Assembly: GCA_963703955.1 (NCBI GenBank)
Contig: CAVPGK010000017.1
Span: forward strand, 64,001-128,000
DNA: 64,000 bases
Reading direction: 5' to 3'
Source: Nitrospirota bacterium
GTDB taxonomy: Bacteria; Nitrospirota; Nitrospiria; Nitrospirales; Nitrospiraceae
Shown: positions 42-23,822 of the stretch, in pieces
How positions within the stretch are numbered: position 1 is the first letter of the stretch
Layout: each line of letters opens with the position of its first letter
Notes under the pieces: model-generated
The model's input: only the letters and a program-made list of their open reading frames with translations
Databases searched by the model: none
Told to the model about the DNA's origin: nothing
Translations under genes and position numbers: made by a program

Positions 42-85
42 AATCTATCCAACTAGACGGATGGCAGTCTAGTCAAATTTGCTCA
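42..85 (-). promoter_or_regulatory. Crp-like palindrome (70-85) plus -10 box; target gene lies left of the window
   Basis: Minus strand TGAGCAAATTTGACTA-GACT, then TAGATT at 47-42; same layout as 7 other copies. Confidence 0.6.
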
Positions 86-286
86 GTTGTGAAGAATTGA
101 TACGCTTCAGCGTGACGGCGGCTTGCTCGAAATCAACCGTACCGAATCAAGATCATCCCTCAAGCGACGTACGACAAGATCAAAGATCAGATCATTGCCA
201 AGCAGAAATGACGAAGGTCATCTGTCTATTGATGAAACAGGGCGGTGGCCCTGCTGTTGCTCGAAGCGACGCGGGAATGTGACGCC

Positions 287-1141
287 TCAACGGTGAGCCC
301 GGCGCGAGCCGTACTCATGGGCATAGACATAGGTGAACTCCGCTCCTAAAAAGAAAATTAAGGCCGAATAGTACACCCATACCAAGATGGCCATCAGTGA
401 AGAGGCGGCGCCGTACATCGATGCCATGGCCGCGCCTCCAAGATAGAGCCCGATCGCCCACTTGCCGATCGTGAAGAGCGTGGCGGTGGCAATCGCACCG
501 ATCCAGACGTCCCGCCAGGCGATATACCCTTCCGGAAGCATCTTGAACATGAGCGCGAAGAGCAAGGTGATCCCGATCGGCGAACCCGCGAGATCTACGA
601 TTGTCATGATGAGCTGAGGCCATGGTATGGTCCGGTGGATGAATTTCCCCACGGCAGCCAAAACGGCGCTCATGATCAGGGACACCAGGAGAAGAAACCC
701 CGTGCCGATCACGAGAATAAACGACAACAATCGTGTCCTGAGCGCTCCCCAAAGAACGGCACTTCTCTTTCCCGGGATCCGCCAAATGAAGTTCAACGCA
801 TCCTGAAGTTCACTGAACATTCCCATGGAGACGACGAGCAGGGTGACCAGACTGACGAGCATCGCGATGGTCCCGTGCGCGGGGTGACCAGCGCTGTGCA
901 GCATGTTCGCCATGGCTTCGGCCCCGGGTTTCCCGATTAGGCCTTCGAACTGACCAAGCAGTTCCCCTTGCACGGCATCCTCATCAGCGACGACAGCCGC
1001 GATGGCGACGGCAATCGTCAAAAGGGGAGCGAGGGAGAAGAGTGTGTAGTAGGACAAGGCGGCGCTCAACCGCCACGGATTGTCGCCCCACCACTTCGTG
1101 GCGGTATCCCTGAGCAACCTCATGACCCTGTCGATCTTCAT
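287..1141 (-). CDS. YihY/virulence factor BrkB family membrane protein
   Basis: SAALSYYTLFSLAP and YGAASSLMAILVWVYYSA motifs, multiple TM helices. Confidence 0.9.
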   Translation of the reverse strand: MKIDRVMRLLRDTATKWWGDNPWRLSAALSYYTLFSLAPLLTIAVAIAAVVADEDAVQGELLGQFEGLIGKPGAEAMANMLHSAGHPAHGTIAMLVSLVTLLVVSMGMFSELQDALNFIWRIPGKRSAVLWGALRTRLLSFILVIGTGFLLLVSLIMSAVLAAVGKFIHRTIPWPQLIMTIVDLAGSPIGITLLFALMFKMLPEGYIAWRDVWIGAIATATLFTIGKWAIGLYLGGAAMASMYGAASSLMAILVWVYYSALIFFLGAEFTYVYAHEYGSRRAHR

Positions 1142-1399
1142 ATTCCAATCGTTCTCGGCGTCTCGCGCAGCTCGATGACCTCATCCCCAGCCATCCCTTA
1201 ATGGCCGCCGAAATGGAGCCGCCGAGCATCTCAACGTTCAGGATTCTGTTGATTCGGGTGGGGGCCGAGGCCAGATGGCGAAATAAGCGGTCGCGAAGTC
1301 CGGCCCTTCAATCGTCACCCTTCGTCGCCCTTGGTGTTCTCAAGGCGACTCAGTGTCTTTGGTGTTGCAATGCCGTGCGTAAGGAGGTCGCGAGACCGA

Positions 1400-1506
1400 T
1401 ATGAGCGGGAACTGCGAACGTGCAATCCGCCGTTGTCGTCAATGAAGCCCAGCTTCCCGAACTTATTCAGGAAGAAACTGACGCGGGAGCGCGTGGTGCC
1501 GACCAT
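1400..1506 (-). pseudogene. C-terminal HTH relic of a Crp/Fnr regulator
   Basis: MVGTTRSRVSFFLNKFGKLGFIDDNGGLHV is nearly identical to the C-terminus of the regulator at 4140-4794; no N-terminal domain. Confidence 0.75.
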
Positions 1507-1630
1507 TTTCAGTTTTCGGGAGGATCTGGTTGGACGTCATCACGAGACATTCTGCCCGCTACGGTGGAAGAGATCTCTTAGTTACGGCTGAGACGCCAAG
1601 TCAGGTTCGCGCCCTGACGGTCCTGAACCA

Positions 1631-3541
1631 TCATGCATCTTGGAACTCCTCGCTCCATAGATCGATCCCATTGATCGCGAGCCCTTGGAGCGACGCCTCG
1701 AACGCCCCTTTGAACTTCCGGTAACGCACTCTGGCAGTGGGCATCAGGGCCCTCAGCGCCTCACCATCCACCAATGCGCGGAGCGCATCGGGGGTAGCCT
1801 GCTTGAGATGCTCGAAATTGATAATGATGTCGAGTCGCGCCTTCTCCGCCGCCTCTCTGATCCGCGTGAGCAACTCTTGTGCGTTAAGCCGATCCAGCGT
1901 GCCTTCCAGGTCTACGAACAGCGCCGCACATTGATCATGACGTTTGGCTTTGATGTTCAGCCACAACTCCTGCGTCGAGGCGGTCGTTGAATCCAGCTTC
2001 TGCTTGATCGGATGCAATGCATTCGGGATCAGATGCTCCCGCTCAATCGTCGGCAGTTTGGCCTGCAAGGTCTTCAGGACCGTCGCCACCGGGGAGAGGG
2101 TCCCTTTCGGGCAGGACCGCTTGAGGAGCTTGCGAAATTCCCGATTCATTTCCAGACGCGGGATGAATCGCTGCGTCGTCCCGGACAGCCGGCGCCAGAT
2201 CGACGGGATCGAATAAAACTGATGATTGGCCCAGAAAAAACCCTCCTGGAGCTGCTCCGCTGTCATCCGGCTTGGAGAGAAGACGACGTGCTTGCCGTCA
2301 TATTTCGCCCAATCCCGGTCGAAAATGCGACCCGCCTGATTGTAGCGTTCATACAGCGCGGTGCCCGGGAGCGGAGTGAGCACATTGAAGTAGGCCAGCT
2401 CCACCTGATTCTTGATGAGGAACTCCACCGCTCGCTCGAACACCGATTCGTCGTCGTGATCGAAGCCAAAGACGATCCCGGGGTTCACCATGATCCCGTG
2501 ATCGTGAAACGTCTGAATCTCGTCAGAAAACTTCTGCACCCGATTGAAGGGTTTGTTGGTTTCCTCCAGACTGTCCTCATCGAGCGATTCCATCCCTACG
2601 AAGACCGAGACGCAGCCGCTCTCCGCCGCCAGCTTGACCATTTCGGGATCATCACCCAGAAACATGGTCGATTGGCACCCCCACTTGATCTTCAGTGGTT
2701 TGAGCGCCGACCAGAGCTCGCGACAGTAGGCGCGGTTGCTATTGTGCAGGTCATCAACAAACGCGAAGATGGTGCCATCTTCAATGCCGAGTCGAATCCG
2801 TACGCCCGTGAGGAACGCATGCCAGAGGGAGTCATTCCGGATCCGTTCCACCAATTCGTTGCGAATCCAGTGTTTGATCTGCGTGAGCTCCTTGACGACT
2901 TCTTGCACCGGCCGCCGTCTCGTCGTTTTCCCATTAAAGGGCGAGACACTGCAGAACTCGCAATCGAAGTGACACCCCCGCGTTGTAAAACTGCACTGTC
3001 TGGTCATATAGGCATCGGGGCTCAGCAGCTCCACGCGCGGATTCTTATAATTGTCCAGCGCCGGAAACGATTGCATCTTATAGGCTCGCTTCATCGCGCC
3101 CGCTTCGAAATCCGCGATGAGTTCTGGCCACAGCTCTTCCGCCTCGCCACAGACGATGGCATCGCTATACTGGAGCGCCTCCTCAGGGCAATAGGTCGGA
3201 TGGACTCCGCCGAGGACCACCTTCTTCCCCCGCTTTCTGAACTCCGTCGCAATCTCATAGGCTCGCGGGGCGTAACAGGTCATCACCGACAAGCCGACGA
3301 GATCGCAAGGATGATCGAAATTTACATCCTCCACCGCCTCATCCACGAGGTCCACGTGCCACGGTTCAGGCGTATAGGCCGCGATGACCGGCAAACTCAG
3401 CTTCGGGAACCAGACCGCACGCCGTTCCGACGCCGTCAGATGGTAGGGATTGTTTCTCGGATAGGGATCCACCAATAAGAGCGTGCGTGTCTGCGCACCC
3501 TCGGTGAACCGGGATGGTCGAGGCGGTTGGATGAGCTGCAT
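1631..3541 (-). CDS. B12-binding-domain radical SAM protein with C-terminal STAS-like domain
   Basis: N-terminal B12-binding-like region (GGVHPT), RGCHFDCEFC CxxxCxxC, C-terminal VDLEGTLDRLNA...IIINFEHLK. Confidence 0.85.
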   Translation of the reverse strand: MQLIQPPRPSRFTEGAQTRTLLLVDPYPRNNPYHLTASERRAVWFPKLSLPVIAAYTPEPWHVDLVDEAVEDVNFDHPCDLVGLSVMTCYAPRAYEIATEFRKRGKKVVLGGVHPTYCPEEALQYSDAIVCGEAEELWPELIADFEAGAMKRAYKMQSFPALDNYKNPRVELLSPDAYMTRQCSFTTRGCHFDCEFCSVSPFNGKTTRRRPVQEVVKELTQIKHWIRNELVERIRNDSLWHAFLTGVRIRLGIEDGTIFAFVDDLHNSNRAYCRELWSALKPLKIKWGCQSTMFLGDDPEMVKLAAESGCVSVFVGMESLDEDSLEETNKPFNRVQKFSDEIQTFHDHGIMVNPGIVFGFDHDDESVFERAVEFLIKNQVELAYFNVLTPLPGTALYERYNQAGRIFDRDWAKYDGKHVVFSPSRMTAEQLQEGFFWANHQFYSIPSIWRRLSGTTQRFIPRLEMNREFRKLLKRSCPKGTLSPVATVLKTLQAKLPTIEREHLIPNALHPIKQKLDSTTASTQELWLNIKAKRHDQCAALFVDLEGTLDRLNAQELLTRIREAAEKARLDIIINFEHLKQATPDALRALVDGEALRALMPTARVRYRKFKGAFEASLQGLAINGIDLWSEEFQDA

Positions 3542-3587
3542 GGTTCTCTCCTGCGGGTCGCTTGGGGGCCTCGTCAGATTCAGTGCG

Positions 3588-3743
3588 CTAAACTCCTGAC
3601 GCCGGCCCCTTTGGCTTCAACGGAAACCTGCCATGATCTAAATCTCTCAGGCAAGACGTACAGATGGTGTGCGTGCTTCCCCTGTCTTTATGAGGCGGTT
3701 TGTCGCCCAGTTGTTGCTTGCACCAAGCGCAGATGATAATCAT
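3588..3743 (-). CDS. 51-aa putative Zn-binding micro-protein (CAWC...THTICTSC), below ORF-track cutoff
   Basis: Manual translation MIIICAWCKQQLGDKPPHKDRGSTHTICTSCLRDLD...; GAGGTGG RBS. Confidence 0.7.
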   Translation of the reverse strand: MIIICAWCKQQLGDKPPHKDRGSTHTICTSCLRDLDHGRFPLKPKGPASGV

Positions 3744-3831
3744 CAGGACCACCTCTGAAGGTGAGGATTGGGGAAAGGATTACCTGAGCCGTTCACTCAT
3801 GGTCCGCTTTCCTGGATAGATCTTTCGTGAA

Positions 3832-3874
3832 AGGCTATACCTCCTGGCAGATGCAATCTGGTCAAAATTGCTCA
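3832..3874 (-). promoter_or_regulatory. Crp-like palindrome (3859-3874) plus -10 TAGCCT
   Basis: Minus strand TGAGCAATTTTGACCA-GATT; TAGCCT begins 37 nt after site start. Confidence 0.7.
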
Positions 3875-4139
3875 GTTGTAAGAATTGATGGCGCGGGGCA
3901 GCTTGAGGCTGCCGCTGCGTGGGATAACAGCAAGGGCACGTCGTTCTGAGGGACGCGGTGACCAGACAGATGAATTGGGTGGGAGAATCTTGGCGGCCGG
4001 TGACATCAGTTCGTGCATGCGGATGACGGGGATCGCAGGACGGCTCCGCCTAGGCCGTCAATGATCGGGCTAGGCCCACGACACTCTGACGACACGAAGC
4101 CGAATCTGCGCTGTGCTCGAAACAGCGAGGCTGGTCAAC

Positions 4140-4794
4140 CTAGTCGTGCAGGACGACACCGAGGAGGGAGCTGTGAACTTGCAATCCGCCGTTGTAATGA
4201 ATGAACCCCAGCTTCCGGAACTTATTCAGAAAGAAACTGACGCGGGACCGTGTGGTGCCGACCATGTCGGCCAGTGTTTCCTGACTGATCTTCGGAACGA
4301 CCGGCTCAGGCTTGCCTTCTTTCCCAAAGTGGGCCAGCAGCAGGAGGATCCGCGCCAGCCGCTTCTCGCTGGAATTAAACAATTGATCCACCAAGTCTTC
4401 TTCGATGCGAATGTTGCGAGACAGCAGATAGGAGGTGAAGAGCTCCGCGAATGTGGGTTCGTCGTGGAGCACGCTGATCATGGCGTTTTTGTCGATTCGA
4501 ACGATGCTGGCGTCTTCGAGTGAGGTCACGGTCCCCATGCGAACAGCCTGCCCTGCCAGGCAGCCTTCACCAAAAAAACTACCACGCTCCAGGATGGCCA
4601 CGACGGCTTCTTTGCCTTGTTGGGACACCACGGTGAGCTTGACCTTGCCCTGCTGCAGATAGAAGACGGCATCCGCCGCATCCCCTTGCGAAAAGATAAT
4701 GTCTTTCTTTCGGGACTGCAGAATGGGTTTTTCCGTTGCCGACCTTGGTGAGAAAGGTTTTAGGATTGAAAAGCGAGGTTCGTTTGCGTGCCAT
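4140..4794 (-). CDS. Crp/Fnr family transcriptional regulator, apparent +1 frameshift near 4725
   Basis: MARKRTSLFNPKTFLTKVGNGKT joins IFSQGDAADAVFYLQQGKVKLTVVS...FFGEGCL...SQETLADMVGTTRSRVSFF if one C is removed. Confidence 0.85.
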
Positions 4795-5031
4795 CGACGT
4801 CGCCCAAGGAAGTTCTGGCAAGTGTTTCAGAGATATCAGAATACCAGGGTGGTGAATTGTTTTGCAAGAGTGTTTTTTGAGGGGGTATTACAGTGGGCTA
4901 GGAAGCTCAAACCGCTAGATCTATGCACCTCAACATACATGCATGCCTCACGCATCTATGTTTCTCCGTGCATGGACTACCTGCTGCGCGTGGTTCTCCT
5001 TTATCATCAAGGGAGCTTTCATGAATACAAC

Positions 5032-5061
5032 TTGACAGCGCACCCAAATAGCGCGTAGCCT
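5032..5061 (+). promoter_or_regulatory. sigma70-like promoter for structured RNA copy A
   Basis: TTGACA-18-TAGCCT. Confidence 0.65.
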
Positions 5062-5067
5062 GACACC

Positions 5068-5195
5068 ATGACGTTCTGAGCCACGCCGACTGCCCTATTA
5101 CTCGCGCTTCGCGACTCCTCCTCGCGCGATTGATTCTCCAGTCTCCGCCGCTTCCTACGCCAGACTCTCTTTAAAGGCACTGTCATGCCTTTCCG
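5068..5195 (+). ncRNA. Structured RNA/leader family 1, copy A
   Basis: GACTG(5088)/CAGTC(5139) stem enclosing GCGA-CTCCTCC-TCGC hairpin; homologous to copies B-F. Confidence 0.6.
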
Positions 5196-5389
5196 GTCAT
5201 CGGAGGCCAATGCCCTCTTTCTGGCTTGTAATGTGCTCTCCAGGAAAGCAGCATGCCGGACCGCCGCCGCCAATGCGACGAGCGGAATCATACGATGGGC
5301 ATTGGACAAATCCGTTGGCCCTACAAACGACCCGGTAAGGTTATCAAAAGTCGAATCACGGTCTCGCGTAAAAACAAAAGGAGGGCGAC

Positions 5390-5629
5390 ATGAACCACGA
5401 GCAATTCAAACAGAGTTGGTGCCAACTTGAGGGACATCTTAAGAAGCACTGGGGAAAACTCACGAAGGACGATCTTGCACGGATTGATGGCGATTTAGAT
5501 ACATTCAACAGCGCCATCGAACAGCGTTACGGCGAGATGAAGGGAGAGGTCAGCAAGTGGGCGGACCGATGGTATGCCCGGTGGACCGGGTGGTATGAAG
5601 GGTACGAAGAGGCGAAACCGACCTCTTGA
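5390..5629 (+). CDS. CsbD family stress protein
   Basis: W.QL.G.LK..WGKLT.DDL motif; GGAGGG RBS. Confidence 0.85.
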   Translation: MNHEQFKQSWCQLEGHLKKHWGKLTKDDLARIDGDLDTFNSAIEQRYGEMKGEVSKWADRWYARWTGWYEGYEEAKPTS

Positions 5630-5709
5630 CTGGTTGAACCAAGTCCACCGATAAGCCGCTGGATCTCAGGCCTGAATAGCATAAGCACATTGCTTCGGCG
5701 AGGTGCCTC

Positions 5710-6210
5710 ATGAGGACATTGACGATTCTGTTGTGCGTCCTGTTTGTCGGGTGTGCCGGACTGACGGATTTCGGCTTGGCGTCTCAGCACAAAGTCCGTT
5801 GGGGTGAGATCGTCCGGGATGATCGTATCACGGATCAACCGACGGCGAAGGCAGAGCCGGAATATGTCGCCACGAGAGATCATGCGGTCTGGCAGTATTT
5901 TCATGACAGAGGGCGCGACTTCAACAAGCGCGACTGGGAAGTCGTGACTTGGTACGCACATCTCAGCCGTGCGGATCGTCGGCAGGTTGACGCGGAGAGT
6001 GGCCCGGATGACGCGCATGAGACACTCCTGCCGGATAGCCCACCGTCACTGCAGCCCATGGCTGATGTATGGCCGTCGATGGCTCTGGCACCGACGCCGC
6101 TCTATCCCATCGTCCAGGAGCCGACGTTCAATCCTAATCCCGGGTTCACCTGTAGTACGTATAAATTGGGAGGGAGCAGTTCGGCCACCGATTGTTTTTG
6201 GCCACCGTGA
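5710..6210 (+). CDS. Hypothetical lipoprotein
   Basis: Signal peptide with FVGC lipobox; GAGGTG RBS. Confidence 0.6.
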   Translation: MRTLTILLCVLFVGCAGLTDFGLASQHKVRWGEIVRDDRITDQPTAKAEPEYVATRDHAVWQYFHDRGRDFNKRDWEVVTWYAHLSRADRRQVDAESGPDDAHETLLPDSPPSLQPMADVWPSMALAPTPLYPIVQEPTFNPNPGFTCSTYKLGGSSSATDCFWPP

Positions 6211-6245
6211 GCCAACCAGCCGCACGTATTAATGGAGGGAGTGTA

Positions 6246-6515
6246 TTGACTTCCTGCTGGGTGTGGTTATGTCTACTAGGTAGTGGATGAAGCGCTCCGA
6301 TGAAGGGTCGTTGAAATCCCAATCCCCATTCAACCTCGCCTTTTCCCTCGCTTCCACCGAAGTAGACCGAAACGACATGCCGATGAAAAGGTACCGGCGA
6401 CGCTACAGGGCTGCTGGGCTCGCCATTGCAGAATGAGCGCCACGACCGGCTCAACACGGCGAGCAAATCATTCCGAACTCAGTCACGATCTGAGGAAGAA
6501 CCAAAAGGAGAAGGT
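6246..6515 (+). promoter_or_regulatory. Conserved promoter plus 5' leader, family 2, copy 1
   Basis: Homologous to 28680-28921(-); identical 34-nt core and GTTGAA/TTCAAC hairpin. Confidence 0.6.
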
Positions 6516-6956
6516 ATGAATACGAGAAACTTTGTGCTGACGATCGGCATTCTCTATTTACTGGTGGGAGCGCTAGGCTTCCTTCCCGCGCTGGTTTCCG
6601 TGCCACACCCCGGTGCACCCAGTGTGACCGTGGATACTGGTTACGGTTATCTCCTGGGGCTGTTTCCCGTGAACGTGCTCTATAACCTCTTTCACCTCGC
6701 GATCGGAGCCTTGGCGTTCGGCGCCTATCGCAGCCTCTCCAGTTCGACCCTCTTTACACGTGGGGTTGCGATCCTCTTCGGCGTGCTGGCGGTTATGGGA
6801 CTAATCCCGATGTTGAGCACCACCTTTGGGTTGATTCCCCTCTTCGGCCACAATGTATGGCTCCACGCCGCCACGGCGGCGATCGCTGCCTACTTCGGAT
6901 ATGTGCGTGCCGCGGAAGTCCTGCCGCTGGAGTGGGGAGCCAGCCGGGCGTCCTGA
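6516..6956 (+). CDS. DUF4383-like membrane protein
   Basis: LLGLFPVNVLYNLFHLAIG and NVWLH motifs; AAGGAG RBS. Confidence 0.8.
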   Translation: MNTRNFVLTIGILYLLVGALGFLPALVSVPHPGAPSVTVDTGYGYLLGLFPVNVLYNLFHLAIGALAFGAYRSLSSSTLFTRGVAILFGVLAVMGLIPMLSTTFGLIPLFGHNVWLHAATAAIAAYFGYVRAAEVLPLEWGASRAS

Positions 6957-7272
6957 AATCGTGCCGCCGGCAAGCGTCACGGCTTGCCGGCTTCGCCGCT
7001 CCGGCATCGTGGAAGGACCGAAATAGAAATAACAGGGTGAGGTCTCTCGCCCTCATGGACAAAGAGCAGACGGAGGACAGAAGGTCTCGGCAGGTCACGG
7101 AAGTGACCTACCTATTGCTACGGGGAAGGAGCGTTTGTGATCAAATCTGAATTGTTAGAAAAACGGATCTGACAAAAGCGGATTGGTGCAAGAAAGTAGT
7201 GTCGGCGTCATTACGCTTTCGTTGATTTCAAAGAGCGTGAGAGAAGCTGCCGGCCTCTCAATTCTTCGAAAC

Positions 7273-7315
7273 CGAGCAATATTGACCAGACTGCATCTGT
7301 CTACAGGCATATGCT
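7273..7315 (+). promoter_or_regulatory. Crp-like palindrome (7273-7288) plus -10 TATGCT
   Basis: CGAGCAATATTGACCA-GACT; TATGCT at 7310. Confidence 0.65.
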
Positions 7316-7387
7316 CAACAAAGAAGGCGAGTCTTGAAGGAAGCTCATTCCAAGCATGACCCCATAGCGGTCGGTGAGAGAGCGACT

Positions 7388-7462
7388 ACGAGATCCTTAG
7401 CCAGGCTGATTGTCCTCTCATCGCGTTTCTGCTTTGCCCTGCGCGGCGGGTTCCTCGGAGTA
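7388..7462 (+). ncRNA. Structured RNA/leader family 1, degenerate copy E
   Basis: TTAGCCAGGCTGATTGTCCTCTCATCGCGTTTCTGCTTTGCCCTGCGCGG aligns to copy C. Confidence 0.4.
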
Positions 7463-7482
7463 ACGAGTCACAAGGAGCAGCG

Positions 7483-7599
7483 ATGATTAGCATAACGTTC
7501 AAGGAAATCTGGCATGACACCGGCGTAGAGCTCGCACTGGGACTATTCCTATTCGTCATGGTCGTCGGTGCTCTCTTGACGTTCTTGATGTCGGGATAA
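7483..7599 (+). CDS. 38-aa single-TM micro-protein
   Basis: MISITFKEIWHDTGVELALGLFLFVMVVGALLTFLMSG; AAGGAG RBS; resembles 12067-12165. Confidence 0.65.
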   Translation: MISITFKEIWHDTGVELALGLFLFVMVVGALLTFLMSG

Positions 7600-7699
7600 G
7601 GCCGCCGGTGTGTGACGGCAAAGAGACCGGAAGCCCATACGGTCTTTCGAAGGTGACCGATGAGATCTCAAGCAGATTCTGAAGACTAAGGAGAACGAT

Positions 7700-8068
7700 A
7701 TGAATAGCCAACTCACGGCTCATACGCACATCGAGATCACGGAAACGCTGGTCCGGCTGTACGTCTTTCTGGCTCAAGACCTGGACCGCTGTCTGGATGA
7801 GGCTGCCCGCCGAACCTATCCAGAGCAGGAGCTTCAGTCGCATCTCGCTTCAACACGGGCCGAGATAATGGAGATGCTCTCGGTGAACCGGGTGGTCAAG
7901 GAGAAGGTGGAACAAGAGTGTAATCGAGTGCTCTCCCTCGCTGGGGCATGCCTCGCGGACGGAGCCGGAACGACGACGGCGATGGATGAATTGAAAGCGG
8001 CGCGGGCCATGCTGAAAACCAAGACCATGGCCTTGAGTGATTTGCTCGCGGTCTTTCGAGCCGCGTGA
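7700..8068 (+). CDS. Hypothetical helical protein
   Basis: 122-aa ORF with AAGGAG RBS. Confidence 0.7.
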   Translation: MNSQLTAHTHIEITETLVRLYVFLAQDLDRCLDEAARRTYPEQELQSHLASTRAEIMEMLSVNRVVKEKVEQECNRVLSLAGACLADGAGTTTAMDELKAARAMLKTKTMALSDLLAVFRAA

Positions 8069-9023: not shown

Positions 9024-9245
9024 CGACCACGAAAACTGGCACAAATACCGGACATATTGAGAGGCAGGAGACCACTCGATGACGAGGAGATCAAACGTTG
9101 AGGCGACCATTGCGTACGTTGGACTAGCCGTGACGGTCTTCGGAATGTTTTGGTGGATGGACCACTACTGGGGAAGCGGCTCTCAGCAGTTCAATCACGG
9201 TGTCGCATAAGAAACAGCGGTGGGTGTCATGAAGGAGGTGGGTCA

Positions 9246-10454
9246 ATGGAAACCACATCAGTCATCGGAACAAAAAATAACAAAGGTCAGGTCTACAGTA
9301 ACCCCCGGGTGATGATGAACGAGGCTCCGCGCACGCCCTCCTTTTTTACCGGCAGCGAAGTCATCAAGGAAGCCGTCAGACGCGCCAATGTGGACGTCAT
9401 GGTTGCCTATCCCATCACACCTCAAAGCGAGGCGGCCGCCCTGTGTGGAGAGCTGTTCGCCGAAGGGTACGTCAAGGAATACTTCCGGGGGGAGAGCGAA
9501 TTTGCGGTGATGTCGCAATGCGCCGGCGCGGCATTCGGCGGCGCCCGCGTGTTCACCACGACGGCTGGTCCCGGCACCATGCGAGCCATGGAAAATTTTC
9601 CGATGTGGGCCGGCGCGAGATTGCCGATCCAGATGATCGTCACGTGCCGCGGCATCAATTCACCCCTCTCGATTCAGCCAGACACCATCGAAATTTCGTA
9701 CCTGCTTCAGACCGGCATGCTGGTCTGGCACGCGGAGACGGCGCAGGACTTCTATGATTGGATCCTCAAGGGCTACATGGTGTCAGAGGAGCCGGATGTG
9801 CATTTGCCGTTGGCCCTCTGCTGCGATGGCTTCTTCGTGACCCATACGAAAGACATCGTCAACCTGACTCCAGTCGATATGTGCCTGCCGCCCTATGATC
9901 CGTACCGGTCACCGGTTCCGTGCATGGACATGGAATGTCCGCCGGTCCGAATGATGCGCGACCCGTTCGTGATGAAGAGCAACTATATCAGCTATGCCAC
10001 GCACGCCAGCTGGCAACAGGAAGTCTGGGCCGCCGTCGAGCGGTCGCGAAAACACACGATCTCCTGGATGGACGGTCTCATCGACACGGAAAACGTCGAT
10101 GCTGATGTCCTGATCGTGTCGTCGGGAACTGCGGTGTCCCAAGGTCGTGAAGCCATCCGCCTGTTGGCCGATGAAGGGATCCGCGTCGGGCTGGTCAAGA
10201 TCAAGGCGTTGCGGCCGTGGCCGGGCGAGGAAATCCGTGAAGCCACCAAGAACGCGAAGTTTATCATTGTGCCGGAGTTCAATGTCGTCGGCTGGATGGC
10301 GCGAGAGATCAAAGCATCCATTCCCAACAGCGAGCGTGTCATCGCCGCGCCGCACGTGTGTGGTGGCATGACAATGCCGCCGGAAGTCATTGTGTTGGAA
10401 ATTAAAAATTTGCTCGGCCTGCGATCCGAGGCGCTGGCCGGACGCAATCGTTGA
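9246..10454 (+). CDS. 2-oxoacid:ferredoxin oxidoreductase alpha subunit (ForA/PorA type)
   Basis: AYPITPQSE and TTTAGPG motifs; AGGAGG RBS. Confidence 0.92.
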   Translation: METTSVIGTKNNKGQVYSNPRVMMNEAPRTPSFFTGSEVIKEAVRRANVDVMVAYPITPQSEAAALCGELFAEGYVKEYFRGESEFAVMSQCAGAAFGGARVFTTTAGPGTMRAMENFPMWAGARLPIQMIVTCRGINSPLSIQPDTIEISYLLQTGMLVWHAETAQDFYDWILKGYMVSEEPDVHLPLALCCDGFFVTHTKDIVNLTPVDMCLPPYDPYRSPVPCMDMECPPVRMMRDPFVMKSNYISYATHASWQQEVWAAVERSRKHTISWMDGLIDTENVDADVLIVSSGTAVSQGREAIRLLADEGIRVGLVKIKALRPWPGEEIREATKNAKFIIVPEFNVVGWMAREIKASIPNSERVIAAPHVCGGMTMPPEVIVLEIKNLLGLRSEALAGRNR

Positions 10455-10534: not shown

Positions 10535-11441
10535 ATGAGTAGAGAGCGAATCAAAATTGCGCCAGAGTTCTTCGACATCATGCCGCCTGAGTACCAGGAT
10601 TTGGTCACGAAGGCGACCTACGGCAATGAGAGCCGTGGCTGGAAGGACATCGGGACAAGTAAGGAATTGATTGAAGAGCATGCCCTCTGCGCTGGGTGCC
10701 CGGAATCCATGGCGTTTCGATACATTCTCGCCTCTCTTCCCAATCCCGAGGACACGGTCATGGTGGGGTCGACCGGCTGCACCAGCCTGGTCTTTCCGCA
10801 CGTCGCCATCCACAATATCCACTCGCTGTTCGGAAATCAGAACGCGATAGCCTCCGGCCTCAAGCGGGCCTTGACCGTCCGCTTCCCGGGCCGAATCAAG
10901 GACGTCGTCGTGCTGGCCGGCGATGGCGCAACGGTGGACATCGGACTGGACATGACCCTGCAGGCGTGGTTCCGTCAAGAGAAATTCACCACCATCTGCT
11001 TCGACAACGAGTTGTATGCGAACACCGGAGGCCAGGAAAGCGGGCTGATGCAAAAGGGCTTCGTGGCCAAAATGGCCCCGATGGGAAAGAGTTTTGAGAA
11101 GGTGCGCCTTCCGGAAATTGCGCGTGAATCAGGCTGTCACTATGTCGTGAACTGCACGGTGAGCAAGCCCTCGCTCGTTGAGAAAGTCATCAGGAATGCG
11201 GTCCTGGTGGCGCGAGAAATTGGTCCCACCTATCTCGCAGCTCTACACCCCCTGCATTTTGGAGATCGGGAAGGACAGCATGGAGGGCCTTCAGGAGATG
11301 CGTGACTCGGAAAGGCCGAGCGAACGGTTCGCGTATAAGGAGTACATCAGCGAGCCGGCGAAGCAGCTCTTAACTGAAATCGCCGCCAAGGACAAGGAAA
11401 AGAAGGCCGTCGCGAAGCAGTTGGTGTCCCAGGAAGCGTAA
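10535..11441 (+). CDS. 2-oxoacid:ferredoxin oxidoreductase beta subunit (probably ForB type), apparent +1 frameshift at ~11236
   Basis: CAGC, GDG and NTGGQ TPP motifs; GPTYL continues as QLYTPCILEIG in the next frame. Confidence 0.88.
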
Positions 11442-11461
11442 GAAATAGGGCTAAATAGCGG

Positions 11462-11490
11462 TTGACTCGGCTGCCTATTGCGCGTAGGGT
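11462..11490 (+). promoter_or_regulatory. sigma70-like promoter for structured RNA copy D / erpA
   Basis: TTGACT-17-TAGGGT. Confidence 0.6.
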
Positions 11491-11496
11491 GAGGCT

Positions 11497-11605
11497 ATGG
11501 TGTGTTAAGCTTCGCTGACTGTCCTATCTCTCGCGTCTGTCCCGCGACCGATCCCCAGTCTCCGCTTCCTGCACCGTTTCTTTCAAGGGCGCTTTCATTG
11601 CCATT
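11497..11605 (+). ncRNA. Structured RNA/leader family 1, copy D
   Basis: GACTG(11517)/CAGTC(11556) stem with TCGCG-TCTGTCC-CGCGA hairpin. Confidence 0.55.
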
Positions 11606-11714
11606 GTATGACCGGAGGCGACTGCCGCGTTCTGGTTTCCAGAGGGGTGTCTCTACACATGGGCGGTTGAGGCGCGTCGGGCGCTCCAGTCAATCAGAAA
11701 AAAGGGGGAGAGTG

Positions 11715-14419: not shown

Positions 14420-14431
14420 GCCATACAATCC

Positions 14432-15444: not shown

Positions 15445-15487
15445 TGAGCAATCTTGACCAGACTGCATTGGCTCAGAGGTATACCCT
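15445..15487 (+). promoter_or_regulatory. Crp-like palindrome (15445-15460) plus -10 TACCCT
   Basis: TGAGCAATCTTGACCA-GACT; TACCCT at 15482. Confidence 0.7.
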
Positions 15488-15542
15488 CTAGCTAGATCGC
15501 CACGAGATCGTGAATCACATTTGCGGAAAAGGAGAATCACGA

Positions 15543-15821
15543 ATGCTGCCTGAACGCGTTCGGTGGTTTCGGAGATGGTATGGCCGTCAAGGGACTGAGA
15601 ACATGCCCCCCGGAAGTCCGGATGAGGTGAAACTGGATACTATCGGCCCAGCCTTTGACCGGGCTGTGGCTCGTAAGAAGGCCCGAGAGGATCTCCAGGC
15701 CACCAGGAAGTACCAAGGGACTCGCGACGACTTGTCGCTCTTCCTGCCACCGCCGCTCGATAATGGGCCATTGGCCTGGACAACGAGACGAGGAGCTGCG
15801 GCAAGGAGGATCGACCCCTAA
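15543..15821 (+). CDS. Hypothetical protein
   Basis: AAGGAG RBS; directly downstream of a motif promoter. Confidence 0.5.
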   Translation: MLPERVRWFRRWYGRQGTENMPPGSPDEVKLDTIGPAFDRAVARKKAREDLQATRKYQGTRDDLSLFLPPPLDNGPLAWTTRRGAAARRIDP

Positions 15822-15917: not shown

Positions 15918-16737
15918 TTACAAGGCATCCTGCGCACACCGGATGCCCACAAATGGGGCTTTGTTCGCAGGAAAGTAACTGTCCCGGAAAGTGGATTTCA
16001 CCATTTCCTTGGAGTCAGCGAACGACCCACCTCGGATCGCCTTTTGTGTGCCGTGAGAGGGGCCCTTCGGATTGCTGTCCGGGCTTGTTGCGTAATATTC
16101 TTCGTCGTACCAGTCCGCCACCCACTCCGCGGCGTTTCCCGCCATGCCGTAGATCCCATGGGGACTCTTGCCCCCCTCGTCGCTATCCACCGGCCTTAGA
16201 TTGTCATTATATCGGGTGCCTGAAAAGGGCTTATTGTAATTCGTCAGTTTAGAAGAAGGGGCTGCGTTTCCCCAGGGGTAACTGCGGCCGTCCATCCCTC
16301 GTGCTGCTTTCTCCCACTCAGCCTCAGTAGGGAGACGCTTTCCGGCCCAGCGACAGTAGGCTTCGGCTGCGTTCCAGCTGACACCGATCACCGGCCTATC
16401 CCCATCGTGGGACAGCTGGATGTCAGCCCAAGACATCGGCACAAATCCAGGTTCAGGCCGGTCCAGTGGCTGCTAAGAATGTCGCATAGCGCGCTGCTGT
16501 CACCTCATAGAGGTCCATATAGAACGCGTACAGGTACACTCCGTGGGCCGGCTTGCCCCTGTAGGATCGTTCTTGGCTCCCCATCATAAATCCCCCGTCT
16601 CGGATCCAAGCCATTGGGGCTCCATTCTTACGAGCCTCGGCCTCCAACGCTCGGCGAGTCTCGGCTACCGTGGGGATAGTCGGACTGAGAGCAGCAAGCC
16701 CGGCCAGAATCGTCATGGTAAGAGCGAAGCGTCGCAT
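15918..16737 (-). CDS. Secreted FGE-sulfatase (SUMF1/EgtB/PvdO) domain protein, apparent +1 frameshift at ~16460
   Basis: Signal peptide; [39 protein letters not shown]. Confidence 0.85.
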
Positions 16738-16895
16738 GGGAGACCTCCAATGTTCAATGCGGTTAAAAATGTTACATGCCGTAAAAATGTCGCATAATGT
16801 GGTTTTACCCCGGCCAGGCAGGCCCGCTCTACGAAGCCATGGGCTCAAAATTGGCGAGCGTTAGGAGATCGTCAATGGGCGAGCATGTTAGCAGC

Positions 16896-16938
16896 ATTAT
16901 GCCTATAGGACCGATCGCAGTCTGTTCAGTATTGCTCA
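16896..16938 (-). promoter_or_regulatory. Crp-like palindrome (16923-16938) plus -10-like CATAAT
   Basis: Minus strand TGAGCAATACTGAACA-GACT. Confidence 0.6.
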
Positions 16939-16991
16939 ATTTGAAGACGGATACGGTCACCTCTGGCCTCCGGTTTGAAATCTTCGAAACA

Positions 16992-17035
16992 AGAGCAATT
17001 TTGACCAGACTCCTTTCCACCCAGAGGTATAGCAT
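16992..17035 (+). promoter_or_regulatory. Crp-like palindrome (16992-17007) plus -10 TAGCAT
   Basis: AGAGCAATTTTGACCA-GACT; TAGCAT at 17030. Confidence 0.65.
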
Positions 17036-17184
17036 TGAGGGAGGTATCGTTGCGTCACGGATGCGAAGGAGGAGTCCCTCGATGTACTACTGCTGTCGAT
17101 GTAGCAAAGACACAATGGAAGACAGCGCTTCAACATGGGGCACTGACATGTTCTCCCGTCCCCAATGAAGCGACGCATGACACC

Positions 17185-17312
17185 ATGACGTTCTAAGCCA
17201 CGCCGACTTTCCTATCGCTCGCGCGCATCTTTTCCTGCGCGTCTGATTCTCGAGTCTCCGCTGCTTTCTACGCCACAGTCTCTTTGAAAGGGGGCGGCTT
17301 TCACTGCCTTTA
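17185..17312 (+). ncRNA. Structured RNA/leader family 1, copy B
   Basis: GACTT/GAGTC stem with CGCGCA-TCTTTTCC-TGCGCG hairpin; closest to copy A. Confidence 0.6.
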
Positions 17313-17394
17313 AGTTCTTGTGCGCGTAGGGCTGCTGTATCTGCCCAGAGGATCTCTTGCTCGCCCACGTCTTCTGACAAGAGGAGGAACGGAG

Positions 17395-17616
17395 ATGCGC
17401 TGCGAACGCTGTGACGGTCTCATGGTGATGGACCACTATATCGATATGGTGGGCGGAGGACCATGGCTGAAGGCATGGCGGTGCATGTGCTGCGGAAATG
17501 TGGTCGATAACCAAATCAAGGCACATCACTTCGCTGCCGATCCACAGGTCCACAGGCGACGGAGCTTGCGTAAATTTCAAGAAGAAGGGAGACTTCAACC
17601 AGCGGTTTGGCTGTGA
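17395..17616 (+). CDS. Small CxxC...W.CxxCG Zn-ribbon protein
   Basis: MRCERCDGLM...WRCMCCGNVVD; GAGGAGG RBS region. Confidence 0.75.
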   Translation: MRCERCDGLMVMDHYIDMVGGGPWLKAWRCMCCGNVVDNQIKAHHFAADPQVHRRRSLRKFQEEGRLQPAVWL

Positions 17617-17677
17617 TCGCCGTTACGTCCGCCATTCGTTTGCAAGACGAGATCATAGAGGCCTGCGGGCAAGAACG

Positions 17678-17783
17678 AGAATACCAACATCGTGCAGGAG
17701 CTGAATCTTCTGCCTGTGAAGATCTACTGCTCGGTGCTGGCGGACGATGCGATTAAGGCAGCTTGGATGACTACAAGAAATCC
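17678..17783 (+). pseudogene. iscU 3' relic
   Basis: NTNIVQELNLLPVKIYCSVLADDAIKAA matches the IscU C-terminus at 13594-13980. Confidence 0.75.
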
Positions 17784-18119: not shown

Positions 18120-18416
18120 ATGATAGGTACATTGAATCAAGTGGACTGGGCAGAGCAGATCAAGGCACGAGTGAGTGTGGAGTTTGATCGCGTTGCGAAA
18201 GCGCTGGCCTCGGCAGTCAGTAAACAGGCCGAGCGACATCGACTGGAGACTCAGGCCCTGATCTCAATCCTCGAAGATAAGCGCGCCCAAGTGATGGCGA
18301 ATGAACAGGCCGGCTATTTCATCTGTGAGTGGCAGGAGTTGAGCGATCAGGTCCGACAGATGATCATTCAAGATCCTCGGTACCAAGCGATCAAGGCTAG
18401 GAGAAAGACGGTATGA
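18120..18416 (+). CDS. Hypothetical protein
   Basis: GAGGAGG RBS; helical 98-aa ORF. Confidence 0.7.
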   Translation: MIGTLNQVDWAEQIKARVSVEFDRVAKALASAVSKQAERHRLETQALISILEDKRAQVMANEQAGYFICEWQELSDQVRQMIIQDPRYQAIKARRKTV

Positions 18417-18578
18417 CTTGCGCTCAGTTGGGGCAGTCCGCGTACCAGCCTTGGCTTGAGGATCGAAAGCCTCGGCCCCTCACTACGAATACATAACAAT
18501 ACAAAATGAATTGTACGGGAGGCCACCTCTCGAACCGTGATAGGAGCATCACATGAATCTGAAGTGAGAGAGGTAGAC

Positions 18579-18621
18579 TGAGCAATTTTGATCAGACTTC
18601 CATTCCTCCACGGCATAGCAT
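18579..18621 (+). promoter_or_regulatory. Crp-like palindrome (18579-18594) plus -10 TAGCAT
   Basis: TGAGCAATTTTGATCA-GACT; TAGCAT at 18616. Confidence 0.7.
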
Positions 18622-18705
18622 GTTGCTCAATGGTATTGCGCATAACCTCCTCTCTTGGAGCTTCTTGAAATAGTCCTGCAGAGCGGCGGGAACCGCAGAA
18701 AGGAA

Positions 18706-18981
18706 ATGGTGACCACCCTGAATACGAATTCGACACTGTCCGATCTGGACAAGGCCAAAAAGCAGTTGAGCGAGATGGTCACGTCTATGAATCCCCAGCT
18801 CATGTGTAAGATTTCGCAAGAGACGGCAAATGGGATCTTTCAAATCGCCATTTCGAACAAAACAAGAACGCTGAGCTTATCACTTTCCGAGGATGATCTG
18901 TACGATTTCATAGAAGATCCAAGCTCAATGAAACAGATCCGCGGACAGATGGAGCAACTTATTCGTGATCTAAGGTGTTAA
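18706..18981 (+). CDS. Hypothetical protein
   Basis: AAGGA RBS; downstream of a motif promoter. Confidence 0.55.
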   Translation: MVTTLNTNSTLSDLDKAKKQLSEMVTSMNPQLMCKISQETANGIFQIAISNKTRTLSLSLSEDDLYDFIEDPSSMKQIRGQMEQLIRDLRC

Positions 18982-18986
18982 GCACC

Positions 18987-19169
18987 ATGAAGCCATATAC
19001 AATGACCGTCGCAAAACAAGCTCACGAGCGTGATCGACGAGCCAAACAGCGAGAGAAAGAGTCGCGTCGGGTCCAGCGAAAAGACGAGAAGGCGGCACAC
19101 GTTCGACCAGACACCGGGGCGGATCCAGACCTTGCCGGTATGAAACCGGGACCGCAAGCGCCCCTCTAG
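18987..19169 (+). CDS. Small basic hypothetical protein
   Basis: KQAHERDRRAKQREK...DPDLAGMKPGPQAP. Confidence 0.55.
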   Translation: MKPYTMTVAKQAHERDRRAKQREKESRRVQRKDEKAAHVRPDTGADPDLAGMKPGPQAPL

Positions 19170-19212
19170 AGATAAACGGCTTTGTCTAGGTCAGATGATG
19201 CACCAGTCTGAG

Positions 19213-19368
19213 TCACTCGACCGCATCCGAGCCTTTTCCTAACATCACATGCGGACGGATCGAATCGGTGATTCCGTTGAGGGAGTCCCCCGCCAAACCG
19301 TAGATTCTTTTCACTCCAGCTGCCACCAGAGTATCGACAAGTACATCTGCCACCTCTTTCTTAGCCAT
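19213..19368 (-). pseudogene. N-terminal relic of TPP-dependent pyruvate dehydrogenase/oxidase (PoxB-like)
   Basis: VADVLVDTLVAAGVKRIYGLAGDSLNGITDSIR, then truncated; GGAGG RBS. Confidence 0.8.
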
Positions 19369-19936
19369 GCCGCACCTCCTCCTGATGGGCGAACCGTTCT
19401 CGACGCTCGAGGTGCTGACCACGGAGAGTCTGCGCGGGAAGGGAAAAATGGGATGGGCTACTTTTCGTATGCTCTACCGGTTGCATGGAGCGTCCTCGCG
19501 TCATGAAAACATAGTCGGTCCCCAAGCCTTTCATCCACAGATTCATGGCACTCATGATCGTGCGGCACGGATGCTCTCTCCTTGTTCCTGTTCACTACCT
19601 GATTGCCGCTTGGCTTACTTAGCCCCGACCTCCAGCATCGCCCGCACGGGCGCGGATACTAACTCACGTCCTCCCAGACATCTACAAGCCGGCTATATTT
19701 CCAGTGCCCAGAGATCGTCAGGACGGGCCCGGCGGCTGCCACCATGGCCAGCAGAGCGGCACACACTTTATGACAGCAGACAAGGGATCTCTTTAATCAC
19801 CCATCGCGTTGCAGTACGGTATCGCTCTGTATAGACTGGTCTTGTACGCGTAGACGAAGTGGACATCCGTCATTGACCTTGCCTTTCCCTTTTGTGAACC
19901 ATCAATCCAACGCGACGATTAAATTCCTCAGTTGGC

Positions 19937-21817: not shown

Positions 21818-22196
21818 AACTGAGTAATTGGCAGGAGCACCTCGCTTAAACTCCTAATCCTAAATGCACTGATGCTTCCGCCGGCTGTAAGGTGGCGCGG
21901 CTTCCTCTCCACGTTGGGCCATAACCTAATGGTCGCAATTTTCTTTTACGTCAGCAAATCAAAGGTGCTGTTGCGATCGGGTTCTGCATGTAAAGGCCGG
22001 CCTGATTTTCATTCATCTCGTCTAATCGGTCGATCGCCTTGTGTGTTCCACCGCACGAGCAGGTATGGTGCTTTTTCCACCCGGCTATGAAAATTGTACT
22101 TTCGCTTATTTTTTTCGTTTTGCTGAGCTATGAACGTGTAGGAACTAGAGTCAGTCATGCTGGCGTGTTCTGTAACGCGAGGCAAGGGCTACACCC

Positions 22197-23507
22197 ATGA
22201 CCTTTTGGTTCATCATCGTGGGGGTCTTGCTAATTGCCATGGCGCTGGCGGATACGGTAGTTCAGCGTCTCCCGCTAACCACGTCAATGGTTTACTTGGC
22301 AGTAGGGCTGGGGCTAGGCCCCCATGGGTTCGGCTTGATCCAGCTAGACCCCCTTACCCACACATCGATCGTTGAACGGCTCACCGAAATAGCCGTCATC
22401 ATCTCCCTCTTTACGGCTGGACTCAAGCTGAGCATTGCCATCGATGATGCGAGATGGTTGGTTCCGATTCGGCTCGCTTTCGGCTCCATGGTGCTGACCG
22501 TCGGACTCATTGCCATCGTTGGGGTTGTCATGGTGGACCTGCCATTTGGAGCGGCCATCCTGTTGGGAGCTATCCTGGCCCCTACCGATCCCGTGCTTGC
22601 CTCCGATGTCCAAGTCCAGCACGCCGAAGACGTAGATCCGCTCCGATTTACGCTGACCAGCGAAGCGGGCCTGAATGACGGCACCGCGTTTCCCTTCGTC
22701 ATGCTTGGTCTGGGACTGCTTGGCCTGCATGAGCTGGGCACGGCTGGCTGGCGCTGGGTCGCAGTCGATCTCATCTGGGCGACGGCGGGCGGCTTCGCCA
22801 TCGGCGGGGTGCTTGGGACGATGGTCGCTCGTTTGATTCTATACTTGCGGAGGGAGCACCAAGAGGCGCTGGGGCGGGATGAGTTTTTGGCGCTAGGCCT
22901 GATTGCCGTGTCCTATGGCATCGCCGTCGCTGTGTCAGCCTATGGCTTTCTGGCCGTTTTTGCAGCAGGGGTCGCCCTTCGGCGCATCGAGCGCGTATCC
23001 AGGCAGACGGCTTCCCCTCCGGTCTTGCTGCCCGTGACCGCAGGCGAACAGGTGACCCAGGGAGAGAAAGCTCCAGCCTATATGGCGCAGGCTGTGCTCA
23101 GCTTCAACGAACAGCTTGAGCGGGTTGGGGAAGTCGCCGTCGTCCTCATTCTTGGCGGCATGCTGTTTCTTCACGACGTCTCGGTGGGGGCACTAGGGTT
23201 GGTGCTGTTGCTGCTCGTCGTCATTCGGCCCCTTGCGGTCATGCTGGGACTCATCGCCACGCCCGCAATAGGCCTTCTGAAACCTCTCATCGCGTGGTTC
23301 GGCATTCGTGGCATCGGATCAATTTATTACTTGATGTATGCGATTGAGCATGGCCTGTCCCGAACGCTCGCCTACCAGTTGACAGAACTCACGCTAACCG
23401 TAGTGGCGGTCTCTATCCTTATCCATGGAATGTCGGTCACGCCGCTCATGAAGCGATATGAAAAACAAATAGGACGTCGTGCGCGGGGAGTTACCTCGCA
23501 GACCTGA
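22197..23507 (+). CDS. Cation:proton antiporter (CPA1/NhaP-like)
   Basis: LAPTDPVLA, EAGLNDG, WFGIRGIGS motifs. Confidence 0.9.
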   Translation: MTFWFIIVGVLLIAMALADTVVQRLPLTTSMVYLAVGLGLGPHGFGLIQLDPLTHTSIVERLTEIAVIISLFTAGLKLSIAIDDARWLVPIRLAFGSMVLTVGLIAIVGVVMVDLPFGAAILLGAILAPTDPVLASDVQVQHAEDVDPLRFTLTSEAGLNDGTAFPFVMLGLGLLGLHELGTAGWRWVAVDLIWATAGGFAIGGVLGTMVARLILYLRREHQEALGRDEFLALGLIAVSYGIAVAVSAYGFLAVFAAGVALRRIERVSRQTASPPVLLPVTAGEQVTQGEKAPAYMAQAVLSFNEQLERVGEVAVVLILGGMLFLHDVSVGALGLVLLLLVVIRPLAVMLGLIATPAIGLLKPLIAWFGIRGIGSIYYLMYAIEHGLSRTLAYQLTELTLTVVAVSILIHGMSVTPLMKRYEKQIGRRARGVTSQT

Positions 23508-23779
23508 GGAGGACTCGAATGGTGATCCTCATGGGAAGATGTGCTGGCACGGGACGAGGATGATCTTCTTTCGTTTGGAATGGTATGTTGCTTGAGTGAC
23601 ACGGTCCATCGTTCACGCCCAAACGTCGTCCCAGGTGGGCTGAACGTAAGCTCTTGGCATAACCCTTCGTAGTTGGGCTGTCCGCCGTCGAAGGAGACAC
23701 GATTAGGTTGCCTTGATCTCCTTGTATTGAGCAGGCGAGAATTCGAAAAGTTAGTCTAGACCTACCGTATCATTTCCAT

Positions 23780-23822
23780 TGAGCAATTTTGATCAGTCTC
23801 AATCCCTCCAAAGGCATACAAT
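23780..23822 (+). promoter_or_regulatory. Crp-like palindrome (23780-23795) plus -10 TACAAT, upstream of the CsbD gene
   Basis: TGAGCAATTTTGATCA-GTCT; TACAAT at 23817. Confidence 0.72.

Follow-up and report, generated by a model that had tools for sequence, protein, structure and literature searches.

Eight oriented copies of a TGAGC-type operator in an accessory island of a Nitrospirota bacterium, and a Crp-family regulator as their likely binder

Class II promoters activated by Escherichia coli CRP carry a site centred at -41.5, the loop region of CRP residues 56-58 and Lys52 constitutes activating region 3, and the related regulators FNR and FixK2 recognize the consensus TTGAT-N4-ATCAA. 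Bacterial general-stress regulons, for their part, are marked by CsbD, BON, DUF3309, DUF1328, ferritin-like and similar proteins. In PMC11253593, the reading of G2 is ascribed to CRP Arg180 and that of base pair 4 to Glu181 and Arg185, and according to PMC2677863 an altered residue triad in the CRP helix can alter specificity. Here we present a computational analysis of a 64,000-nucleotide stretch of contig CAVPGK010000017.1 from a Nitrospirota bacterium (the window), the first 24 kb of which hold eight copies of a 16-bp imperfect palindrome; these are likely copies of one oriented promoter module, bound by a Crp protein of the same island (recognition helix TRSRVSFF) that would switch on stress-survival genes in class II fashion.

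The original prediction, drawn from the letters of the window, described a motif TGAGC-N6-GAYCA at eight places in class II activator geometry, and a check against the sequence finds all eight 16-mers at its coordinates and on its strands. Their 3' flank is GACT in six copies and GATT and GTCT in one each, in line with the flank it gave as GACT or a close variant. Each copy is followed by a sigma-70-type -10 hexamer, which, as the prediction also had it, is TAnnnT in seven (offset 37 or 38) and CATAAT in the remaining one (offset 37). With the -10 hexamer set at -12 to -7, the site centre falls at -41.5 in six copies and at -42.5 in two, and the -35 element that the site overlaps is a poor match, CAGACT. 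The operators are as follows.

Operator 1, 70..85, minus strand: -10 TAGATT at 42-47, predicted start near 35, facing out of the window
Operator 2, 3859..3874, minus strand: -10 TAGCCT at 3832-3837, predicted start near 3825, about 265 bp past the crp stop
Operator 3, 7273..7288, plus strand: -10 TATGCT at 7310-7315, predicted start near 7322
Operator 4, 15445..15460, plus strand: -10 TACCCT at 15482-15487, predicted start near 15494
Operator 5, 16923..16938, minus strand: -10 CATAAT at 16896-16901, predicted start near 16889
Operator 6, 16992..17007, plus strand: -10 TAGCAT at 17030-17035, predicted start near 17042
Operator 7, 18579..18594, plus strand: -10 TAGCAT at 18616-18621, predicted start near 18628, the most symmetric of the copies
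Operator 8, 23780..23795, plus strand: -10 TACAAT at 23817-23822, predicted start near 23829

A genome-wide scan, one of the checks that the original prediction proposed, was made with a 20-bp matrix trained on the eight window sites, the -10 hexamer lying outside the matrix. Across the 28 contigs (3.3 Mb) of the assembly it returned 15 sites scoring 25.9-36.0 bits, the next distinct place reaching only 17.8 bits. Eleven of them crowd into a 35-kb island (contig C17, 53-88 kb) that begins upstream of the window, while C4 holds two and C6, C11 and C15 one apiece; the remainder of the window holds no strong copy, which agrees with the earlier remark that none was seen beyond 24 kb. The seven sites outside the window, which took no part in training, have TAnnnT at 37 or 38 in five cases and CATAAT at 37 in two, bringing the genomic set to 12 and three, respectively. 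The joint pattern of site and hexamer, which was derived from the sites themselves, occurs seven times in the window and in none of 60 simulated sequences. The loose pattern first proposed, at up to one mismatch, gave 29 matches against 11.2 expected and 17 in the largest shuffle; all four places that it matches exactly belong to the eight sites.

Independent genomes were surveyed through 77 comparison loci around Crp relatives (54 labelled Nitrospirota, 20 Acidobacteriota, two unlabelled and one labelled Nitrosospira, the last three being pooled with Nitrospirota), and 64 of the 77 contain at least one site above 16 bits. After merging of strands and duplicates and removal of sites too near a locus end, 191 foreign sites were retained, 152 non-acidobacterial and 39 acidobacterial. 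Their logo, TGAGCAATTTTGA(C/A/T)CAGAC, is tighter than first described: the palindrome stands, while the supposed N6 is in fact a conserved AATTTT core (variants AATATT and AATTGT) and the right half reads GA(C/A/T)CA rather than GAYCA. T1, G2, C5, G12, C15, A16 and G17 are each present at 96-99% in the non-acidobacterial sites, percentages that the matrix threshold used to pick the sites partly fixes, and the logo upholds the earlier view that the half-site resembles neither that of CRP nor that of FNR.

The -10 spacing in these independent genomes likewise bears out the proposed geometry. Of the 152 non-acidobacterial sites, 77 have TAnnnT at offsets 36-38, where nine control triplets of offsets gave 0-8, and so do 12 of the 39 acidobacterial ones, where the controls gave 0-5; on the mirror side it is found in only six of the 152. 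Relative to the -10 hexamer, a centre near -41.5 on a poor -35 with a one-sided -10 is the arrangement of CRP/FNR class II promoters. The sites are predominantly intergenic, 174 of 191 lying outside called genes where 71% of the DNA is coding by a simple gene caller, and a gene start follows 40-500 bp downstream in 145. A tract 6-12 bp upstream of the non-acidobacterial sites is A/T-rich (0.65-0.69 A+T, compared with 0.39-0.46 further up), a feature that is weak in Acidobacteriota. A preference for sigma-S was looked for and not found, as C at -13 is not enriched (27%); having been chosen on A-11 and T-7, the alignment cannot serve as an independent check on the -10 itself. The RNA contigs of one study span stretches of 4085-8000, among them DNA that precedes the predicted start at 7322; being assembled, they are uninformative on start sites or transcript levels.

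The identity of the binder was approached by co-occurrence, in a search of 200 Nitrospirales genomes for both the TRSRVSFF Crp (encoded by 50, lacking in 150) and the site, which takes the motif scan beyond this genome, the original prediction having proposed one across Nitrospira. At least three sites were found in 34 of the 50 Crp-positive and none of the 150 Crp-negative genomes, at least two in 43 and five, and at least one in 47 and 24, for totals of 314 and 29 sites. The contrast persists within each of four well-sampled genera and is therefore not an effect of lineage alone, and the number of sites rises with Crp copy number (rho 0.62). Of 56 non-acidobacterial loci, 26 have a site on the crp strand 50-120 bp past the crp stop, and nine of the 191 foreign sites stand upstream of crp genes themselves. 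The local Crp protein, already named as the one to try in binding experiments, is on this evidence the best-supported candidate for the binder.

Several observations weigh against this reading and should be set beside it. Of the Crp-negative genomes, 24 of 150 carry one or two matches, 29 in total, somewhat more than the 18 reversed-pattern matches in all 200; three of the 50 Crp-positive genomes have no site and four have a single one. Kinship among the genomes surveyed means that the Fisher P values overstate the co-occurrence, which would also fit another passenger of the island as the binder. Three of seven plasmid loci (L140, L141 and L144) show no excess of sites over simulation with a symmetric matrix, and only one of the eight in-window targets is a recognized stress marker. 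Finally, both full-length copies of crp in this genome carry a +1 frameshift near codon 23-26, and the regulon could be orphaned in this strain. The copies in the window are the following.

4140..4794, minus strand: Crp/Fnr-family regulator and putative binder, recognition helix GTTRSRVSFF, with Pfam cNMP_binding and HTH_Crp_2
1408..1512, minus strand: decayed 3' remnant of a second crp copy, upstream of a YihY/BrkB gene at 287-1141

The frameshifts bear on the rival that survives best, namely that the operators are real but form a decaying orphan set, spread in this genome by local duplication after loss of the regulator. Besides the two frameshifted genes, the genome holds three crp remnants and split target genes, and three paralogous promoter pairs and one copied cassette are seen among the sites. 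In the window the frame is broken by one extra base near 4724, which is absent from all four covering contigs in two public DNA runs (from related strains, not necessarily the same strain). The essential gene for RpoD ends early in this assembly as well, and seven of 40 tested loci match in more than one frame; since these point to indel errors, the crp frameshift is probably an error of an indel-prone assembly, which is likelier than pseudogenisation. As the sites also remain near consensus, an orphan set appears unlikely. Programmed frameshifting of crp was considered and rejected, most of the 77 related loci being in frame there and the two local insertions lying at different places. Close homologues of the regulator come mostly from Nitrospirales genomes.

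A less probable alternative still is that another regulator of the island binds the sites, either a second Crp type or a response regulator, with the TRSRVSFF Crp a mere neighbour. The second type (helix VSRARVN or TDRPSVS; the VSRARVN form with a C-terminal Cys pair) lies in tandem with the TRSRV Crp, immediately upstream of it, at L076, L092, L093 and L121 (~9067-9800), and 29 of the 77 loci encode receiver-domain proteins. Yet the second type is encoded by only 11 of 201 genomes, the eight that have it without the first hold one site in total, and a genome search did not find it here. Among the 77 loci, which were selected for the TRSRV Crp, no other family reaches a count above 29, and the 5-6-5 layout and the -41.5 centre are CRP-family traits, so this explanation is accorded a low probability.

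With the TRSRVSFF Crp thus taken as the likely binder, its own sequence can be compared with the described regulators. Pfam PF00027 and PF13545 above cut-off place it in the CRP/FNR superfamily, and its AlphaFold model (predicted local distance difference test score 83) matches CRP-family structures at 22-27% identity (Foldseek E ~1e-15 to 1e-18, template modelling score ~0.7); there is no close solved structure, the best matches being at E ~1e-18. No NCBIfam family reaches its cut-off, the CRP model scoring 58.8 bits (cut-off 266), the Fnr model 35 (228) and the LdrP model 45 (300). The comparison loci encode 93 full-length Crp-fold proteins, 79 with a TRSR[VI] helix, one with TCSRV and 13 of other types, and the family is large, 7,996 of 8,000 scored candidates belonging to it at E up to 1e-40. 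A C-terminal VHSSLLNVVLHD segment (residues 206-217 of P0001, an intact family member, and its homologues) is nearly invariant and forms the final helix of the model.

Like E. coli CRP, the system has the same fold, a 5-6-5 site with TG at positions 1-2, an equivalent of Arg180 and a centre at -41.5/-42.5 on a poor -35. It differs from CRP proper, to which it aligns at 24% identity, in that the helix RETVGR has become RSRVSF, the half-site is TGnnCA instead of TGTGA (TGAGC..GA(C/A/T)CA for the full site, not TGTGA-N6-TCACA), the TS motif is replaced by I/V-Q/E, and the regulon is small and island-bound as opposed to global. With FNR and FixK2 it shares the superfamily and the class II position; unlike them it has no cysteine cluster, with a single conserved Cys and no set of iron-sulfur ligands, and both its helix and its site differ. 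FixK2 is described in PMC12937710 as ligand-free with a redox-sensitive Cys in the DNA-binding domain, whereas the Cys of the TRSRV family sits in the phosphate-binding cassette (82% of the 79 proteins).

The E. coli-type pocket for cyclic AMP (cAMP), comprising Glu72, Arg82, Ser83, Thr127 and Ser128, is not preserved. Among the 79 proteins Glu72 is kept in 97% (as Gly71-Glu72) and Arg82 in 59%, Ser83 has become Met in 59%, and the TS motif reads mostly Ile for Thr127 (75%) and Gln for Ser128 (60%), Ile/Val and Gln/Glu overall; sequence alignment further places an invariant Arg at the position of Val126. PMC11253593 and PMC12937710 report that hydrophobic changes in the TS motif render CRP cAMP-independent, and that SdrP of Thermus thermophilus and DdrI of Deinococcus radiodurans act without ligand. 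These stress-tied CRP-family proteins have, as in the present family, lost the adenine-binding residues and kept the Glu72 equivalent, and DdrI, unlike the TRSRV Crp, keeps RETV and binds TGTGA-N6-TCACA (same sources). Because of the degenerate pocket, the TS-motif changes and this precedent, cAMP is predicted not to be the signal. The regulator is more likely switched by its own amount or by a non-cAMP signal; full ligand independence, a prediction for the TRSRV family as a whole, is given about even odds. Control by protein amount, helped by the nine sites upstream of crp, would be our first guess, with a redox role for the pocket Cys, or another ligand, as alternatives.

In the mechanism that we propose, a Crp dimer would occupy the TGnnCA half-sites at -41.5/-42.5, overlapping the poor -35 CAGACT. 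Recognition of the conserved TG would fall to the Arg180 equivalent, the replacements of Glu181 by Ser and Arg185 by Phe would free position 4, and the new Arg at the Thr182 position may recognize the C:G pair that is invariant at position 5. The operator bases fit such a code, since TG is kept, positions 3-4 differ between the halves and C5 is fixed, where Arg180 is kept, Glu181/Arg185 are lost and Arg182 is gained. The GAC retained only downstream could be the remaining contact of sigma region 4, and the A/T-rich upstream tract a site for the C-terminal domain of the RNA polymerase alpha subunit. The same Crp might instead repress by covering the -35 region, which the site does overlap, and a repressor would co-occur alike with its sites. 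A steric repressor has no need, however, of a -10 spacing locked at 37-38, the -35 it would cover is poor, and the beta4-beta5 loop, in the activating region 3, keeps the G-K-E of CRP residues 56-58 without Lys52, and repression is given a low probability.

It is most improbable that the motif is a mobile-element end, a meaningless dispersed repeat or the -35 of an alternative sigma factor, in spite of weak conservation over ~65 bp, a near-identical cassette between contigs, a C4 site lying 147 bp from an IS256 transposase and a genome that encodes RpoS-like, RpoH-like and extracytoplasmic function (ECF) sigma factors, given that the flanks of most site pairs are unrelated, the conserved positions are those of the palindrome and the TAnnnT hexamer, the presence of the site tracks Crp and not lineage, and the site recurs in three phyla. 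Mobile-element ends had been named in the original prediction as the outcome that would overturn it; most copies share neither body nor flanks, although no formal search for target-site duplications was made. The sigma factors encoded are RpoD, a second RpoD-like protein, RpoS-like, RpoH-like and four ECF-sized ones. Of 105 site pairs, three have strongly homologous flanks, the mark of paralogous duplicates, and one pair has weak flank homology; operator 4 shares with C11:161240 a near-identical ~65-bp promoter cassette within largely unrelated flanks. Copying therefore contributes to the spread, and the 15 genomic sites are not all independent, some having arisen by short duplications; in the majority of pairs, though, the module is all that is shared, which speaks against a mobile element. 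The regulator probably travels with its promoters as an accessory island, and new targets are probably recruited in part by copying of the cassette.

The class II mechanism is textbook, and the system, which belongs to that class by its geometry, falls outside both CRP proper and FNR. No account of the regulator-operator pair was found in the open literature, closed journals and databases of regulons such as RegPrecise being outside the scope of the search; the exact site strings and the helix peptide matched only unrelated wheat and worm papers, and the main text of PMC3590769 has no such motif, its figures and supplements lying outside that scope.

The predicted targets of the eight operators can be listed as follows.

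Operator 1: GH94 cyclic beta-1,2-glucan synthase-like gene, L001:10960-19699, in several open reading frames (ORFs) in this assembly
Operator 2: 1631..3743, minus strand, comprising a zinc microprotein at 3588-3743, minus strand (51 amino acids, CxxC..HxxCxxC), and a B12-binding radical SAM gene at 1631-3541, minus strand
Operator 3: 38-amino-acid hydrophobic peptide at 7483-7599 and a 122-amino-acid protein of no known kind at 7700-8068
Operator 4: 92-amino-acid ORF without a family, 15543-15821
Operator 5: FGE-domain gene in two frames, 16453-16737 and 15918-16442
Operator 6: 28-amino-acid ORF, a repeated leader element at 17170-17320 and a 73-amino-acid zinc-ribbon protein at 17395-17616
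Operator 7: 90-amino-acid ORF without a family, 18709-18981
Operator 8: csbD, 23901..24122, plus strand, a CsbD-like general-stress protein (Pfam PF05532 at 62.4 bits)

The pairing of operator and glucan synthase recurs at 437-439 nt in L070 and L095, and the B12 radical SAM gene is the first gene downstream of four foreign sites. The other first downstream genes there include crp (nine), CsbD and BON (seven each), DUF3309 (five), receiver proteins (five, all acidobacterial), RRM, DUF1328 and Ysc84 (three each), ferritin-like proteins (two) and many singletons, and YtxH, DUF948, superoxide dismutase, TreS, GlgE, KaiC, Ku and trehalose-6-phosphate synthase genes lie around the sites. The stress-type regulon of the original prediction thus finds its markers behind the sites of relatives, while within the window csbD is the only classic one; activation and stress induction of the targets would follow from this reading. 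Like the sigma-S, sigma-B and PhyR/EcfG regulons, that of the TRSRV Crp would take in CsbD, BON/OsmY, DUF1328, DUF3309, YtxH and ferritin-like targets, with trehalose, glycogen and Ku genes nearby; unlike them, it has an activator site over a TAnnnT -10 in place of an alternative-sigma consensus, and is patchy and island- or plasmid-borne.

The pair is found in further phyla and on plasmids. Two acidobacterial genomes with the TRSRV helix have 15 and five sites, where reversed-pattern controls give none, and a Bradyrhizobium japonicum plasmid locus with the same Crp helix has eight within 24.5 kb, where simulation gave a mean of 0.8 and at most 5. At a second plasmid locus of that species the palindrome is perfect, TGAGCAATATTGCTCA, and lies some 1.4 kb upstream of crp, and a Methylocapsa plasmid carries two sites beside crp, one facing csbD and the other 85 bp past the crp stop. 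In the Bradyrhizobium copies a TCACCGCC word was noticed by eye ~49-56 nt past the operator start, near the predicted transcription start (L142 sites 1072, 10725, 15109, 18681 and 24000; L139 14232). Operator, geometry and targets together make the regulon predictable in soil nitrifiers, Acidobacteriota and rhizobia, the CRP helix-to-base code could be put to a natural test in the TRSRV family, and the plasmids of cultured Bradyrhizobium and Methylocapsa make the pair accessible at the bench, with WP_018643679.1 as an intact family member from a Bradyrhizobium japonicum plasmid. We put forward only tentatively, as a broader idea that may well not hold, that this is a portable general-stress switch without a dedicated stress sigma factor: a CRP-family activator that needs no effector, has an operator of its own and occurs in thousands of sequence clusters of soil bacteria from at least three phyla, carried by islands and plasmids and extended by copying of the ~65-bp cassette. 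If true, it would help to explain how accessory stress islands are regulated after transfer between phyla.

Some further features of the island deserve mention. The first 25 kb of the window encode YihY/BrkB, the B12 radical SAM protein, two CsbD proteins, a Kup potassium transporter, a Na+/H+ exchanger, oxoacid:ferredoxin oxidoreductase subunits, IscA/IscU-like proteins and many small proteins of no known kind. Between 9246 and 13980 an oxidoreductase alpha and two beta subunits lie amid the IscA- and IscU-like genes, the first beta gene ending apparently early through a frameshift near 11230. Operators 5 and 6 (16923-17007) stand back to back, their centres 69 bp apart, and serve divergent promoters. 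Tiny Cys-rich, zinc-ribbon-like products recur among the predicted targets (3588-3743, minus strand; 17082-17168 and 17395-17616, plus strand; L003:7104-7268), with no Pfam or NCBIfam match at cut-off. KaiC- or KaiB-like genes occur in four related Crp loci (among them L102:11723-13180 and L113:12890-13219), once as the first gene downstream of an operator.

A second repeat, with 11 genomic copies, consists of a leader of ~110 nt that is rich in pyrimidines and contains a TCGCGC/GCGCGA stem; most copies follow a TTGAC-N17-TAGCAT promoter, and the leader lies ahead of small genes (zinc ribbons, IscA, CsbD). Its copies are located as follows.

Window: 5031-5200; 11455-11620; 17170-17320; ~27330-27450, minus strand; 28950-29100
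Contig C17: 30.2, 40.9 and 52.9 kb
Contig C15: 166.0 and 175.0 kb
Contig C13: 55.9 kb

Rfam returned no families in window positions 1-30000, the leader copies there included, and the repeat is a candidate for an undescribed 5' leader RNA. Three copies lie downstream of a promoter with the Crp site, and the repeat is present in other related loci too.

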